Assembly (NCBI GenBank): GCA_003230085.1
Contig: QIGV01000154.1
Coordinates: forward strand, 1,702 to 65,701
DNA length: 64,000 bases
DNA from: Gammaproteobacteria bacterium
Lineage (GTDB): Bacteria; Pseudomonadota; Gammaproteobacteria; SZUA-140
Direction of reading: 5' to 3'
Within the stretch, counting starts at the first letter, position 1. Each line of letters starts with the position of its first letter. Positions 598-61,985 of this stretch are shown piece by piece. Under the pieces are notes generated by a model. The model saw only the letters and a list, made by a program, of their open reading frames with translations, was not told the origin of the DNA and did not search any database. Made by a program: the position numbers and the translations under genes.

Positions 598-637
598 ACT
601 CCCTCTCCCTCAGGGAGAGGGTTGGGGTGAGGGGGCA
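598..637. repeat. REP-like palindromic element, family 1 (CCCTCTCCC-TCA-GGGAGAGGG then TTGGGGTGAGGGGG), partial copy
   Basis: Direct reading. The same GGGAGAGGG / TTGGGGTGAGGGG motif recurs at 33235, 51592 and 60175. Confidence 0.8.
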
Positions 638-7670: not shown

Positions 7671-7756
7671 AAAAAACCGGGGTCAGACTTAAGTTTTCAG
7701 TGCATTGGCGTGTGTCAAAAGGTAAAAAAGAAACTACAGTCTGACCCCGGTTTTTG
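7671..7756. repeat. hairpin repeat family 2, copy 1 (AAAACCGGGGTCAGACT...AGTCTGACCCCGGTTTT)
   Basis: Inverted repeat with ~13-bp perfect arms and a ~40-bp spacer. Related copies are at 38087 and 59486. Confidence 0.85.
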
Positions 7757-8233: not shown

Positions 8234-8731
8234 TTACCCGGTCATGGCCTTTTTGGTTTCGTCGAGCGTTATCATTAAGGTCATATCATTCGTCAGAGAT
8301 TTACGAAAACCCCATTGCTGATAAAAATTTCTGGCTTTATCTGTTAGTGCATGAACAAGCAGGGCACGGATCCCTGCCTGTTCTGCAACAATAATAGTGC
8401 GCTGAATGGCGTCCTTCAGCATTCCGGTTCCCATTTGCTTACCTTGCCAATCAACATCAACTGCTAATCGACCCAGTACCATCACGGGTATGGGGTCAGG
8501 CATATTTCGCCGTATTTTTCCTGAAGACTCTTCTCTGGTGATAGCGCCTACTGCTAGTGAGTAATATGCAATAATGGTATTGTCTTCGCACACGACAAAA
8601 GTTCGTGAGGCGCCGCTGTTTTCGTTCTTTATGGCGCGACGCTGCAGCCAGTCATTAAGCGTCGTGTCTCCACAGTCAAAAGCAGTAATATCATGTGTGC
8701 CAGCAATGGGGCAGGGGGCGCTTATTCCCAT
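8234..8731 (-). CDS. GNAT-family acetyltransferase toxin of a type II TA system (TacT/KacT-like)
   Basis: 165 aa. GNAT core LGRLAVD...QGKQMGTGMLKDA. Overlaps the upstream DUF1778 antitoxin gene by 10 nt. Confidence 0.8.
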   Translation of the reverse strand: MGISAPCPIAGTHDITAFDCGDTTLNDWLQRRAIKNENSGASRTFVVCEDNTIIAYYSLAVGAITREESSGKIRRNMPDPIPVMVLGRLAVDVDWQGKQMGTGMLKDAIQRTIIVAEQAGIRALLVHALTDKARNFYQQWGFRKSLTNDMTLMITLDETKKAMTG

Positions 8732-8997
8732 GGCGCTTTGCGCGCCATGAGATTGCGTAGCGTGGGATTGTCTTTGACGGGTGCATCCAGCGTCGCCATG
8801 AAGGCGTTAAAATCCGCCTCGTTGAGTCTGAAGAGTTGCTGATCCAGCAGAATATTTTCGGCTTCGCGGCAGGCGGTTTCCAGCATAAAATCTGAGCGGT
8901 TTTTACCTAGTATAGTGGCGGCCCTGTCAATCAAGCTGCGTTGTGATTCCAGTGCACGCAAATTGATAGGGGCTGTACGGGTTGCGGACTGTGCCAT
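8722..8997 (-). CDS. DUF1778 (RHH) antitoxin, TacA-like
   Basis: Pattern INLR..ES.RSLIDRAA..LG.NRSDFMLE.A...F.AF...LDAP matches TacA. Start taken at MAQSATR, which has a GGAGA RBS; the ORF track begins 20 codons earlier. Confidence 0.75.
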   Translation of the reverse strand: MAQSATRTAPINLRALESQRSLIDRAATILGKNRSDFMLETACREAENILLDQQLFRLNEADFNAFMATLDAPVKDNPTLRNLMARKAPWE

Positions 8998-9062
8998 ATC
9001 GATATCTCCAGGAACGATGATGATGTTTAGTATATTGTATATCGGATAGATATACAATTGCT

Positions 9063-9362
9063 TTATGGATGGCTAGGTGTGTGATGCAACTTTACAGTGC
9101 GCTTATGCGTTATCTTGCCAGCACCAACGGTATCAAGAACATATGTTAATAGCTCGATTTCAGTGTTGCTGATGCTGATGGCAAGCTGATGGTTTTCATT
9201 ACGATGTTTCCGGCACAGCGTCACGGTGCCTTCTCCGTCAATCAGGCCGGCAATGTAGGCGGTATCGGTGGGTGAAAGCGGATTGACTGTTCGGTAAGAA
9301 ACCATCCTTGGTTCTCTCTTGTAGTAGACAATAAAATGGCCCTGGCATCTTTCCAGGGCCAT
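9063..9362 (-). CDS. truncated single-motif LAGLIDADG homing-endonuclease-like ORF (probable remnant)
   Basis: YIAGLIDGEGTV motif followed by HQLAISI...LLTYVLDTVGAGKI, collinear with the beta1-beta2-alpha region of I-CreI-type enzymes. Only 99 aa, and it ends where the fold should continue. Confidence 0.55.
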   Translation of the reverse strand: MALERCQGHFIVYYKREPRMVSYRTVNPLSPTDTAYIAGLIDGEGTVTLCRKHRNENHQLAISISNTEIELLTYVLDTVGAGKITHKRTVKLHHTPSHP

Positions 9363-9367
9363 GCTGT

Positions 9368-10004
9368 TGGTGGAGGCGGCGGGACAGCTTATCCAAACCT
9401 TTCGGAATGGGCTGGACTATACCTTCATCCTGTTGCCAGGATGCGGGGCGTGTTATTCACCATGTCGTTTTATGGCAAATCCTAGTGCTGGCTCGGTCCT
9501 GTCGGACTCAGCCAGTCTATGAGTCTCTACAGGGCAGGCCTGAGGTTAGCCCTCTTCCTACCCCTCGGTATTGCCCTGACAGCCTGTGCTGCTTTAGGTT
9601 TCACCGATGTGAGCCCCGTTATTCACTTTACCCTTACGGATAAAGGCGACCCGTGTTGATCGAACCCGCGTCCGCAAATCCTCTGCCTTCGGTTCTACAT
9701 GCTTATCCGCGTCAATTAGTTTAACTGCTTGCTACCCGACGGGCAGGGAAGACAAACAGCGAGTCCGGTAAGAGTTTAACGAATCCACCCCGGACGAGCT
9801 TCATCGCGATTCTGTGAGAGATGACGCCTGAGGTCTGAACGCACAGACACGGCTTCAGTCAGACGGCACCCTACTGGGTTTTAAGCAGCGAGTGCGTAGT
9901 TGTCGTCGTTGGCAACTATAAGGTTGCAGCTGGATTTACGAGGTTGTCTGCCCCTCGACATGCACCTAAGGTTTCGCGACCCACGTCGAAGCCAAGTCGC
10001 CCCC
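9368..10004 (-). ncRNA. ssrA: tmRNA (ssrA), apparently interrupted in the T-loop by a group I intron. Exon 1 is complement 9659..10004 and exon 2 is complement 9368..9384.
   Basis: 5' GGGGGCGACUUGGCUUCGACGUGGGUCGCGAAACC...; tag ORF GCCAACGACGACAACUACGCACUCGCUGCUUAA encodes ANDDNYALAA*. The sequence aligns with E. coli ssrA through PK4 to GCGGGUUCGAU, is then interrupted, and resumes with UCCCGCCGCCUCCACCA. Joining the two parts gives a 7-bp acceptor stem with G3:U70, the T-stem GCGGG/CCCGC, a 7-nt T-loop and 363 nt in total. Confidence 0.85.
9385..9658 (-). other. putative group I intron within the ssrA T-loop (~274 nt)
   Basis: 5' exon ends in U and the insert ends in G. An IGS GUCG pairs with exon CGAU (P1). 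There is an S-like element AAGGUAUAGUCC and an R-like element GUAGAGACUCAUAGAC. GNRA hairpins are present (UUUAUCC-GUAA-GGGUAAA and CC-GAAA-GG). Confidence 0.6.
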
Positions 10005-33230: not shown

Positions 33231-33234
33231 AAGT

Positions 33235-33344
33235 CCCCCTCTTCCTCCGGGAGAGGGTTGGGGTGAGGGAATATTATAAATATAAAACAATGCCTTATCT
33301 TATAAAGCCACCTCACCCCAACCCTCTCCTACAAGGAGAGGGGG
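33235..33344. repeat. REP-like family 1, inverted pair (GGGAGAGGGTTGGGGTGAGGG ... CCTCACCCCAACCCTCTCC) around an AT-rich spacer
   Basis: Two opposed copies 40 nt apart form a large palindrome directly after the ffh stop codon. Confidence 0.85.
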
Positions 33345-33465
33345 CTTAACAAAGTGCCATTTGGCACTAAATGCTTTTATTTTGTCGAAAATCGCGTAAA
33401 ATGAGTCACTTTTTTATAGGCAGCAGTTTTTCGCAAGGACTTTCAAGAAGGGGTAAATAGCGAAC

Positions 33466-38086: not shown

Positions 38087-38187
38087 GAAAACCGAGAAAA
38101 CCGGGGTCAGACTTCAGTTTCTAAAACCGAGCTCAGACTACAGTTTTCTTAATGCGCTAGAAACTGAAGTCTGACCCCGGTTTTCTT
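38087..38187. repeat. hairpin repeat family 2, copy 2 (perfect 28-bp arms GAAAACCGGGGTCAGACTTCAGTTTCTA / TAGAAACTGAAGTCTGACCCCGGTTTTC, plus an internal degenerate arm)
   Basis: Direct reading; lies in a 580-bp ORF-free gap. Confidence 0.9.
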
Positions 38188-51469: not shown

Positions 51470-51591
51470 AATAAGGGGGCATTTGTAACTATTTTCATGA
51501 CCCGCCGTTGAATTTCCAATGCAAGGGCACAAAGTTTAATATAGTAATCAGGCTCTATTGGCACTTACTGTAAGAATATTCACCAACAAAT

Positions 51592-51633
51592 CCCCTCACC
51601 CCAACCCTCTCCCCGTGGGAGAGGGGGTTTTTA
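51592..51633 (+). terminator. REP-like family 1 copy acting as a probable intrinsic terminator after trmJ
   Basis: CCCCTCACCCCAACCCTCTCCCC-GTG-GGAGAGGGGG followed by TTTTTA. Confidence 0.6.
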
Positions 51634-59243: not shown

Positions 59244-59444
59244 ATGGGACTGAAATGGACTGATTCACTGGAAATTGCCATTACACTCGATGAAGCACAT
59301 CCCGATGTGGATCCCATGAAAATCAACTTCGTAGAGCTGGCGCAGTGGGTGCGAGAGTTGGCCGAGTTCGATGATGATGTCGGACACTGTGGCGAAAAAA
59401 TCCTGGAAGCCATACAGATGGCATGGATCGAAGAAAAGGATTAA
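59244..59444 (+). CDS. iscX: Fe-S assembly protein IscX
   Basis: 66 aa, acidic, MGLKWTDSLEIAI. Confidence 0.9.
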   Translation: MGLKWTDSLEIAITLDEAHPDVDPMKINFVELAQWVRELAEFDDDVGHCGEKILEAIQMAWIEEKD

Positions 59445-59485
59445 AGGATCCCTACAAAGCCAACGGATCTGTAAGGAAAGAATCT

Positions 59486-59578
59486 ACAGAAAACCGGGGT
59501 CACAGAAAAACCGGGGTCAGACTTCAGTTTCTTTAGAAACTAAAGTCTGACCCCGGTTTTTCTGTGACCCCGGTTTTC
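59486..59578. repeat. hairpin repeat family 2, copy 3 (nested palindrome; probable bidirectional terminator between iscX and mepK)
   Basis: Outer AGAAAACCGGGGTCACAG / CTGTGACCCCGGTTTTCC and inner AAAAACCGGGGTCAGACTTCAGTTTCT / AAACTAAAGTCTGACCCCGGTTTTT. Confidence 0.9.
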
Positions 59579-59585
59579 CTCTGAT

Positions 59586-60183
59586 CTACCAGGTTCTGAC
59601 ACGTCCAACATCGATGTGGACGAAGTCCGAGTCTTTATAGTATCCCACCCCCCCCACGGCCCAGCTTAATTGCAGCGTCACGCAGCCGGGCGCTATCAAC
59701 ACCGCGCAGACGAACGTCAATCGCTTTGCCCTGCATGTGCAGGCTATTTTTTGCCACCCCCTTGCCATTCTCGCGTAACAGCGTGTTGGTCTTCGGTGAC
59801 CGGTAGGCGGAGATAATTTCAAAAGTCCCTTCACCGCCCAGTTGGGTGTGAAGCGCATGGAGAATATCCAGCACACCGGGATTGATGGCATGAATATCAC
59901 CCGTACGGAAATCACTGAGGAAGTGGTTTATTTTCTCCAGTGCCTGCGGTATGTAGTCCTTACCATCGTGATAGACAATGGACAGATTCAACATCGTGTG
60001 TGTGTGGTAAAAATCCAGTTGGCGGGTCGTGGTATAGTTAAAATCCGGGACTCTAGAATAGATGCATGTTATCACTGCTGTCCCTTCTTCCACAGGGACT
60101 CTTTTCAGTACCCCCTTGAGGGGTAGAAGGCTAGGATGAGGGGATAAATAATATAATGCGTTACCTATTCTTGATCCCCTCAC
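59586..60183 (-). pseudogene. mepK: DUF882 / peptidase M15 (MepK/YcbK-like murein DD-endopeptidase), frameshifted at a C8 homopolymer
   Basis: Two overlapping minus-strand ORFs together cover E. coli YcbK. Frame A ends ...AAIKLGRGGGGIL* and frame B carries ...AVGGVGYYKDSDFVHIDVGRVRTW*. Removing one C from the C8 run at 59648..59655 restores ...KLGRGGVGYYKDSDFVHID... No Tat or signal peptide is recognisable at the N-terminus, which is encoded by the REP-like element. Confidence 0.75.
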
Positions 60184-60210
60184 CCCAACCCTCTCCCACA
60201 GGGAGAGGGA
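60175..60210. repeat. REP-like family 1 copy (CCCCTCACCCCAACCCTCTCCC-ACA-GGGAGAGGGA)
   Basis: Direct reading. Overlaps the annotated 5' end of the mepK-like ORF and lies in the divergent region shared with ldtD. Confidence 0.85.
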
Positions 60211-60287
60211 GATAACGAGACATGTTATTTGGTTACCTCAGACTTGAGTCGCCAGCGGCATCATGGCATAAGACGGGAGGAAATCCA

Positions 60288-61985
60288 GTGTTTGCTGTAA
60301 GCAAATTTAGATACTTGATCCAGATATGGGCGATCTGCCTGCTTGTTTCATGGAGTTGTATCGCCACAGCCCAGGTAGAATCCGAGACAGAATCCGACAC
60401 GACGTTCATCCAGTCTCGCCTCAACACCCTGGTCGATAATGGTCACCTGGTGCTGCTAGGTGCCCGGATCGAGAGTACTCATTTTCTACCGGCCTTCTAC
60501 AAGCGTCGTGGCTATCATCTGGCCTGGACGGGTCGTGAGGAAAATATCCACGCGTTTTCCCGGCGTATATTAGCCAGCGCTGAAGAAGGCCTTACACCAT
60601 CCGATTACCATGCCAGCCAGATTCAAAAGACATTGGAGGCGCAATCCAGAGGGGCGTTGTCGCCCGCGCAACAGGCAGATTTTGATCTGATGCTCACTGA
60701 AGCTTTGGCCCGCTATGCTTATCACCTCCGCTTTGGCAAGGTTGATCCGGAAAAACTTGATCCCGACTGGAACCTTGCGCGTTCGTTTAAGGGCCAGGAT
60801 CCGCTGATAGAGCTGCAGGCCGTCATTGATTCTCCCGCTTTTGACGACTGGCTGGATGCCCTGGTGCCGCAATTACCTATTTATAGTAGTTTGAAAAAAG
60901 CATTGGCTAAGTACAAGGCAATACGAGACGCGGGTGGCTGGCCCGTGGTCGCGGCAGGGCCGACCTTGAGGCCGGATATGATGGATGCGCGCGTACCCGT
61001 GATCAGGCAACGTCTGGTCGCGAGCGGTGACCTGGATGCGGGCGCCGACAGTAATAGTGAACATTATGACGAGCCGCTCAAGGCTGCCACCATTCGTTTC
61101 CAGGGGCGTCATGGTCTGGAGCCAGACGGTATCATTGGCAAACAGACGCTGGCGGAAATGAATATTCCCGTCACGGCGCACATTGATCAGATACGCGTGA
61201 ATCTTGAACGTGCCTGCTGGGTTTCTCAGGAAATTCCCGACACCTACGTCATCGTCGATTTAGCCGGTTTTAGAGCAAGCCTGTACCGGGATGGTAAAAT
61301 CGTGTGGGATGAACGTGCCCAGATCGGTACGCCCTTTCGCAAGACACCGGTGTTTCGTGAGGACATGACTTACCTGGATTTAAACCCGACCTGGACCATT
61401 CCGCCGACCATGCTGGAAAAAGATATTCTTCCCCGGATCAGGAAGGATCCAGGTTACCTGGCGAAGAAACGCATCAGGGTCCTCACTTTCAGTGGGGATG
61501 AGGTCGATCGGACGAGTATCGACTGGGAGTCTGTTTCAGCAAAAAAATTCCCTTACATGCTGCGCCAGGATCCTGGGCCTAACAATGCCCTGGGGCGCGT
61601 TAAATTCATGTTCCCCAATCCCCATTTTATCTACTTGTATGACACACCAAGCAAGGAATTATTTGCACGCAATAGCCGCGCATTTAGTTCCGGCTGTATT
61701 CGCGTCGACAATCCTTACCGGTTTGCGGAACTGCTGTTGCAGGACAGTGAAAAATGGAATTTGGAGAAAATCATGGCCGCAGTTGACACTTTGAAGCGGC
61801 AGACTGTCCGCTTGCCTCAATCGATACCTGTCCTGCTGCTTTACTGGACTGTCAATGTCGATCTCAATGGCGCAGTCGTGGCATTCAAAAAAGACCTGTA
61901 TCAACGTGACGCCCGTGTGCTGGCAGGCCTGGATGGGGACTTTGTGTTCAATGCCCCGGCAGATGCCCCCGCATGGCTGAAATGA
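60288..61985 (+). CDS. ldtD: L,D-transpeptidase, YcbB/LdtD-like (PG-binding plus YkuD domain)
   Basis: Catalytic HxxxSSGCIRV. Start set at GTG 60288, which has a GGGAGGA RBS and gives a clean signal peptide (MFAVSKFRYLIQIWAICLLVSWSCIATA/Q). The ORF track begins at ATG 60222. Confidence 0.85.
   Translation: MFAVSKFRYLIQIWAICLLVSWSCIATAQVESETESDTTFIQSRLNTLVDNGHLVLLGARIESTHFLPAFYKRRGYHLAWTGREENIHAFSRRILASAEEGLTPSDYHASQIQKTLEAQSRGALSPAQQADFDLMLTEALARYAYHLRFGKVDPEKLDPDWNLARSFKGQDPLIELQAVIDSPAFDDWLDALVPQLPIYSSLKKALAKYKAIRDAGGWPVVAAGPTLRPDMMDARVPVIRQRLVASGDLDAGADSNSEHYDEPLKAATIRFQGRHGLEPDGIIGKQTLAEMNIPVTAHIDQIRVNLERACWVSQEIPDTYVIVDLAGFRASLYRDGKIVWDERAQIGTPFRKTPVFREDMTYLDLNPTWTIPPTMLEKDILPRIRKDPGYLAKKRIRVLTFSGDEVDRTSIDWESVSAKKFPYMLRQDPGPNNALGRVKFMFPNPHFIYLYDTPSKELFARNSRAFSSGCIRVDNPYRFAELLLQDSEKWNLEKIMAAVDTLKRQTVRLPQSIPVLLLYWTVNVDLNGAVVAFKKDLYQRDARVLAGLDGDFVFNAPADAPAWLK

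Follow-up and report, generated by a model that had tools for sequence, protein, structure and literature searches.

The question raised by this locus is whether a peptidoglycan endopeptidase gene that is broken in the assembled sequence is also broken in the organism. The DNA analysed is a 64-kb stretch of contig QIGV01000154.1 from an uncultured gammaproteobacterium (hereafter the window; all coordinates follow the plus-strand numbering). In it, a minus-strand gene of the DUF882/MepK type adjoins, and is divergent from, a gene for a YcbB/LdtD-type L,D-transpeptidase. The mepK frame is divided between two minus-strand open reading frames (ORFs), 59635..60183 (182 amino acids) and 59586..59915 (109 amino acids), which overlap at a run of eight C. 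A preliminary description of the window had left two explanations side by side, a homopolymer sequencing error combined with a mis-called start, or a genuine pseudogene. The latter was favoured by our analysis. Where the preliminary description had counted two disruptions, the alignments with three close relatives show three lesions, all specific to the window, and mepK is very probably a genuine, evolutionarily recent pseudogene inside a decaying two-gene module for peptidoglycan 3-3 cross-links. The two genes are as follows.

59586..60029, minus strand: remnant of the mepK (DUF882/peptidase M15A) pseudogene, covering the mature domain, with RQLDF at one end and the stop at the other, in two frames owing to an additional G.

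60288..61985, plus strand: ldtD/ycbB-type L,D-transpeptidase gene, an intact ORF of 565 amino acids with a GTG start, a GGAGG ribosome-binding site and a Sec-like signal.

The naming of the DUF882 gene as mepK-like in the preliminary description was borne out by the domain models. With the frame repaired, the protein matched Pfam PF05951 (DUF882/Peptidase_M15_2) at an E-value of 2.4e-49 (167 bits, cutoff 27), and its top NCBIfam model was the MepK equivalog NF053624 (176.1 bits, cutoff 185). The latter match spans model positions 26-176 only, and the score falls below the cutoff because the N-terminal 25 positions of the model are absent. The adjacent gene encodes Scaffold, PG_binding_1 and YkuD (PF03734) domains, which place it in the YcbB/LdtD type, and the pairing of ldtD with mepK in the preliminary description was likewise upheld.

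The ancestral state was read from pairwise alignments with three metagenome contigs from three separate assemblies, each ~96-98% identical to the window at the DNA level. These were L001 (an ENA metagenome contig of 626 bp), L162 (NCBI GCA_006243215.1, 839 bp) and L163 (JGI 3300003885, 2606 bp). L163 was found via the LdtD homologue P0125 and ends before the G tract; its source is a hydrothermal-sediment assembly (PMC6946796). The ldtD-mepK intergenic region measures 109 bp in each of the three. In the protein search, very close intact MepK homologues (P0001 and P0122, forming one cluster) were recovered besides the broken P0002 of the window, and the mepK remnant is 96-99% identical to them at the amino-acid level. 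The relatives listed in the metagenome scan with a reconstructed MepK are no more than 68% identical, and served for the analysis of synteny, not for strain comparison.

At the 5' end of the gene, 107 bp present in L001, L162 and L163 are missing from the window. The missing segment holds the ATG and the signal peptide. Two features mark the site.

60019..60029, minus strand: deletion junction, the hybrid repeat CGACCCGCCAA composed of CGACCTGCCAA and CGCCCCGCCAA, placed by the alignments with L001, L162 and L163.

60030..60064, minus strand: remnant of the 5' untranslated and promoter-proximal sequence of mepK, which in the 182-amino-acid ORF serves as spurious codons 41-52.

In the relatives, the lost segment is bounded by imperfect 11-bp direct repeats, of which CGACCTGCCAA overlaps the ATG and CGCCCCGCCAA corresponds to codons 33-36. 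Judged from these alignments, the hybrid CGACCCGCCAA is what the repeats would leave behind after slipped mispairing or illegitimate recombination. The signal peptide of L162 reads MNKSRIKCLQYSLLILPLLFLGNPGNRLHASEAP and is followed directly by RQLDF; the L163 and L001 versions are near-identical, and the N-terminus of the relatives can be summarised as MNK(L/S)R...LLILPLLFL...HA(A/S)EAP followed by RQLDF, with a hydrophobic core. This signal is Sec-like and the twin-arginine motif is absent from it, while RR motifs are present in the Thioalkalivibrio homologues and in E. coli. The twin-arginine translocation (Tat) signal with which the window had earlier been compared was therefore not the appropriate reference. 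When orthologues were compared for start and signal peptide, as the preliminary description had proposed, the relatives had both, but neither lies upstream in the window. As no upstream start is left to call, and the 107 bp with the start and signal peptide are deleted relative to all three relatives, the combination of a homopolymer error with a mis-called start fails as an explanation.

A second difference from the relatives lies further upstream. The window carries 148 extra bases compared with L001, L162 and L163, with an exact direct repeat of 8 bp, CATGTTAT, on either side, and each of the three relatives has an empty site with a single CATGTTCT. The insertion point precedes the former mepK start by 43 bp and the ldtD start by 60 bp, being upstream of both. 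The parts are given below.

60065..60072: first copy of the target-site duplication, CATGTTAT on the plus strand.

60073..60220: repeat element of 148 bp resembling a MITE (miniature inverted-repeat transposable element), absent from the three relatives and supplying codons 1-37 of the spurious ORF.

60111..60143 and 60176..60209: interior of the element, a degenerate triplex-motif unit and a perfect inverted unit, respectively, with an AT-rich spacer.

60221..60228: second copy of the target-site duplication, CATGTTAT, carrying the ATG of a 587-amino-acid "ldtD".

Compared with the empty sites, the 148-bp element is an insertion with a target-site duplication. Features of a MITE were seen in its size (<200 bp), its lack of coding sequence, the target-site duplication and the empty site in relatives. 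The terminal inverted repeats were weak (~16 nt, ~70-75%, partly judged by eye). A related copy of the element was present at 33234..33358 (69-73% identity), where a target-site duplication was sought and none could be defined. No cognate transposase was identified in a search confined to the window. To our knowledge, target-site duplications are not expected of REP/REPIN elements (repetitive extragenic palindromic sequences) moved by RAYT transposases.

The composition of the 182-amino-acid ORF follows the same boundaries. Its codons 1-37 belong to the inserted element, codons 38-52 to the duplicated target and the former 5' untranslated region, and MepK sequence begins at R54. The preliminary description was correct that this N-terminus is repeat-encoded and without a signal, but a REP element was not what disrupted the 5' end, which was lost in the separate 107-bp deletion. 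It could be proposed that the ORF encodes a functional, remodelled protein with an N-terminus donated by the element, perhaps together with slippage during translation or transcription at the homopolymer, and the ORF is indeed stored in databases as a called protein (P0002/P0121). This appears very improbable. The first 52 codons are repeat element and former untranslated region, and the N-terminus is without a hydrophobic core (best 10-residue Kyte-Doolittle mean of 1.44; the signal peptides of relatives reach 2.6-3.5, those of L001, L162 and L163 2.6-2.8, and that of E. coli MepK 2.2). The product would furthermore lack the histidine of the FVHID motif and 10 near-invariant residues, and no sigma-70-like promoter was found in a scan of 59400..60400. 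A candidate ldtD promoter noted by eye (TTGAGT-17-CATAAG) was unsupported by the same scan and was dropped.

The remaining lesion is the frame switch itself.

59648..59655, minus strand: G8 homopolymer (C8 on the plus strand) with a +1 frameshift, which cuts off V179 to W198, including the FVHID histidine.

The C8 run is the sole G/C homopolymer of at least eight in the 64-kb window. When one C is removed, the two frames join as ...KLGRGGVGYYKDSDFVHIDVGRVRTW and end at the stop codon. The corresponding tract reads G7 in L001, and in L162 it is GGAGGGG, and both keep the frame; the frame switch within C8, with C7 as the intact state, had thus been placed correctly in the preliminary description. 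The frameshift removes the C-terminal 20 residues of MepK, and with them 10 of the 47 near-invariant residues (V179, G180, Y182, S185, F187, H189, D191, R194, R196 and W198). From knowledge of the M15/LAS metallopeptidase family, we take the zinc ligands of MepK to be H149-x6-D156 and H189 (FVHID). The H149-x6-D156 motif is in the first frame and H189 lies beyond the +1 frameshift, so that no single frame holds the complete metal site and one presumed zinc ligand would be removed. A PDB sequence search with MepK returned no match at E<=0.01.

Two further explanations bear on this tract. Under the first, the frameshift alone is an artefact, the tract is truly G7 and the gene is dead by deletion. 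No G/C run of the window is longer than this tract, and the deletion by itself explains the loss of function; nothing specific speaks against such an error, other than that a slip of G7 is an expected neutral event in a dead gene. We consider this unlikely, and the verdict would be unchanged, since the 107-bp deletion leaves mepK dead even if G8 is a miscall. Under the second, mepK is a phase-variable contingency locus in which the G tract switches the gene by slipped-strand mispairing, as might be suggested by the G7/G8 length difference between close strains. However, the tract is interrupted in the close relative L162 and so is not maintained, and a restored G7 would still leave the gene without a start codon or signal peptide. 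The chance that the locus is phase-variable is therefore very slight. Programmed frameshifting, transcriptional slippage and phase variation were rejected on the ground that no start codon or signal peptide remains.

The age of the loss was estimated from the ratio of non-synonymous to synonymous substitution rates (dN/dS). This was 0.07-0.15 for the window remnant against the relatives and 0.10-0.14 among the intact relatives, and because the two are equal, the inactivation of mepK is likely to be recent in relation to the divergence of the strains. In a 121-homologue alignment, 47 columns reach a conservation of 97% or more, and the repaired MepK retains every one of them.

The preliminary description had named ldtD as the partner of mepK. 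This partner is not a healthy one, as tyrosine stands at the position of the catalytic histidine. The true start of ldtD is the GTG at 60288, as the 95%-identical homologue P0125 also has 565 amino acids and aligns over the full length (100% coverage). The ATG at 60222, from which the ORF finder opened a 587-amino-acid "ldtD", lies inside the second copy of the target-site duplication and is spurious. The 587-amino-acid ORF is present in public databases as P0246, with the extra stretch 60222..60287. Two codons within ldtD are of particular relevance.

61638..61640, plus strand: Tyr451 codon TAT, which is CAT in L163; the position is equivalent to His509 of E. coli.

61215..61217, plus strand: Cys310 codon TGC, which is CGC in L163; the residue is Arg in 121/121 homologues.

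The window protein reads YLYDTP, compared with YLHDTP in all ten aligned homologues including E. coli LdtD. The motif is carried by 118 of 122 LdtD homologues with histidine in every case (118/118), and tyrosine occurs in the window protein only. In E. coli YcbB, His509 is the general base of the Cys528-His509 dyad (PMC6478713). H451Y and R310C are both C-to-T changes and are unique among about 120 homologues, R310C among 122; the further changes I375M and G230D fall at columns that are 94-100% conserved. Across 90 near-invariant LdtD columns, the window protein has three singleton deviations, the highest number among 119 sequences (mean 0.17). The catalytic-cysteine motif SSGCIR (SxGCxR) is present. 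Taken from these residues, LdtD is probably catalytically inactive despite its intact ORF.

A full sequencing or assembly artefact, with mepK intact in the organism, was also considered. In favour of an error are a G8 tract that exceeds every other G/C run of the window, a repaired ORF without fault at any conserved site, and the probable derivation of the contig from a metagenome assembly. However, the 107 bp are physically missing and their loss left a clean junction of the repeat-mediated kind, and an exact 8-bp target-site duplication is not a product of assemblers. The unique ldtD substitutions point to real relaxed or altered selection, and elsewhere in the 64 kb the genes are unbroken. 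Coding sequence is dense in the remainder of the window and no other split gene was seen among the isc/hsc operon, ffh, rpsP-rimM-trmD-rplS and xerD, or among addAB-like genes, mutS, ndk and rlmN, which argues against a generally error-prone assembly. An artefact of the whole is accordingly regarded as improbable.

The inserted element belongs to a wider set of repeats. The core CCCTCTCCCnnnGGGAGAGGG occurs five times in the window compared with 0.00 expected, and the core unit consists of CCCTCTCCC-nnn-GGGAGAGGG followed by TTGGGGTGAGGGG. Units of this triplex type stand singly at 601..637 and 51590..51625, and as inverted pairs round an AT-rich spacer at 33237..33342 and in the mepK-proximal element. 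Over 44 nt, the unit shares 95.5% identity with sequences that number ~14 per E. coli genome (median 14), and it matches the TM_ECO intrastrand triplex motifs of Table 1 in PMC4666352. Like those motifs, it has a pyrimidine arm, loop, purine arm, linker and G-rich third strand, and it is present in several intergenic copies. In that study, Holder et al. (2015) reported more rearrangements and intergenic deletions around TM_ECO motifs, and found no mobility functions nearby. The literature searched contained no prior link of triplex motifs to target-site duplications. At the mepK locus, the comparison with the empty sites is direct evidence in the alignments that the triplex-motif pair reached its position by insertion with an 8-bp target-site duplication. 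The deletion junction is 35 bp from the inserted element. As an observation in its own right, this non-coding repeat is strikingly conserved between E. coli and an uncultured gammaproteobacterium with hydrothermal-sediment relatives.

A second, unrelated palindromic family with the core AAACCGGGGTCAGAC has 10 matches in the window, compared with 0.09 expected. Copies were located at 7672..7755, 38095..38184 and 59489..59578, and the copy after mepK resembles a bidirectional terminator.

59489..59578: palindromic repeat with 44-nt arms that are 98% complementary, between the convergent ends of iscX and mepK; terminator-like.

Set against the three relatives, the window lineage shows three changes. 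A 148-bp MITE-like element with triplex motifs entered the 109-bp intergenic region, at a point 43 bp from the mepK start on its upstream side. The 107 bp were lost between direct repeats, probably by slipped mispairing or illegitimate recombination, and the neighbouring triplex-motif element, whose class is linked to local instability in E. coli, may have promoted this loss. The G7 tract gained one G, with loss of the C-terminal 20 residues. From family knowledge, either the deletion or the frameshift alone should abolish the periplasmic enzyme.

The losses of mepK and ldtD probably belong together. In E. coli, a strain deleted for mepK cannot accept a ycbB plasmid, and an abundance of 3-3 cross-links makes MepK necessary (bioRxiv 10.1101/2021.02.12.430937). 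As YcbB is lethal without MepK in E. coli, a dead mepK beside an active ldtD would be expected to be harmful, and a state with both dead is consistent with this. LdtD may have died first, making MepK useless, or MepK may have died first, so that the inactivation of LdtD was selected; either order fits. We tentatively put forward a joint reading, doubtful as a whole, in which the ldtD-mepK pair was lost as a coupled unit (the His-to-Tyr change plus three hits to mepK) and the TM_ECO motif is carried by a MITE-like transposable unit, which duplicates 8 bp of its target and gives rise to deletions close by.

Several points weigh against these interpretations. G8 may be a consensus error, at the very tract where an error is likeliest. 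The source is probably a metagenome-assembled contig, which may combine more than one strain. No missense decay is seen in the remnant, as would be expected of a recent loss but also of an artefact. A second mepK or other endopeptidases may exist elsewhere in the genome. The predicted inactivity of LdtD is drawn from one residue, and the ldtD dN/dS of 0.18 (window against L163) shows no relaxation. The deletion beside the element may fit the reported TM_ECO instability, but this link is taken from a single case.

Comparison with other loci placed the pair in context. A DUF882 gene was next to a YcbB-type gene at 31 of 80 ldtD-seeded genome loci, mostly in an immediately divergent arrangement. 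Among the matches listed, 43 of 80 metagenome loci seeded with mepK also had the pair, again mostly immediately divergent; many of these loci were short contigs. In E. coli K-12, ldtD and mepK are adjacent and co-directional; the preliminary description had set the divergent pair of the window beside E. coli ldtD-mepK, where the genes do not diverge. The nearest named homologues were from Thioalkalivibrio and Thiogranum. No genome from the species or genus of the window was recovered in the LdtD scan of genome contigs, the closest species-representative genome being UBA9214 (LdtD 62% identical). In the UBA9214 contig DMKK01000127.1 (L082, 5600..6000), no mepK was seen upstream of ldtD, and there is an N/X run at the ldtD 5' end. 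The ldtD-mepK pair is thus not universal even in fairly close relatives.

Elsewhere in the window, a tmRNA gene was present at 9657..9996 on the minus strand (168 bits), beside smpB. A weak LAGLIDADG-like fragment (9063..9362) and a TacA antitoxin/GNAT toxin pair (8234..9057) follow immediately downstream of the tmRNA gene, and the interval 8234..9996 looks like a small island integrated at ssrA.

The class of event described here is ordinary, comprising pseudogenisation, a MITE-like insertion and a repeat-mediated deletion. What gives the locus modest interest is that two genes forming a synthetically lethal pair in E. coli seem to be decaying jointly, and that there is evidence of mobility for a triplex-motif element. 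It would be a compact natural example of the decay of 3-3 cross-linking at the level of the module, in agreement with the toxicity of the E. coli transpeptidase without the endopeptidase. If the joint reading is true, the E. coli laboratory rule that LdtD is lethal without MepK would have played out naturally in a wild gammaproteobacterium, and the TM_ECO motif, for which neither the spread nor the mechanism of instability had been explained, would gain a mechanism of mobility. For annotation, the public 182- and 587-amino-acid proteins of the contig are ORF-calling artefacts, and the ldtD gene illustrates how an intact ORF can hide a predicted dead enzyme.

Compared with bacterial MITEs and REP elements organised as bacterial interspersed mosaic elements (REP-BIME), the window element is similarly small (148 bp), non-coding, hairpin-rich, dispersed and intergenic, with a target-site duplication, but its terminal inverted repeats are weak. 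It shares with TM_ECO the three segments CCCTCTCCC-loop-GGGAGAGGG-TT-GGGGTGAGGG, an intergenic position, the occurrence as single units or inverted pairs and a place beside local rearrangement; it differs in that the host of the window is a distant, uncultured gammaproteobacterium and in that the inverted pair lies inside a 148-bp unit inserted with an 8-bp duplication. The window LdtD has the Scaffold, PG_binding_1 and YkuD architecture and the SSGCIR cysteine motif of E. coli LdtD (YcbB, b0925). However, the two are 29% identical, the NCBIfam equivalog score is 263 against a cutoff of 425, and the window protein has tyrosine at the equivalent of His509, together with R310C and I375M at invariant columns. 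The mepK gene resembles that of E. coli MepK (YcbK, b0926), a peptidoglycan L,D-endopeptidase, in its PF05951 family, its place beside an ldtD/ycbB gene and the H-x6-D and FVH motifs that are still found in the DNA. It differs from E. coli in being divergent from ldtD, where the E. coli genes are co-directional, and in the Sec-like signal of its intact close relatives, where E. coli MepK has a Tat signal; the window copy itself is a pseudogene with a +1 frameshift and with neither a start codon nor a signal peptide.

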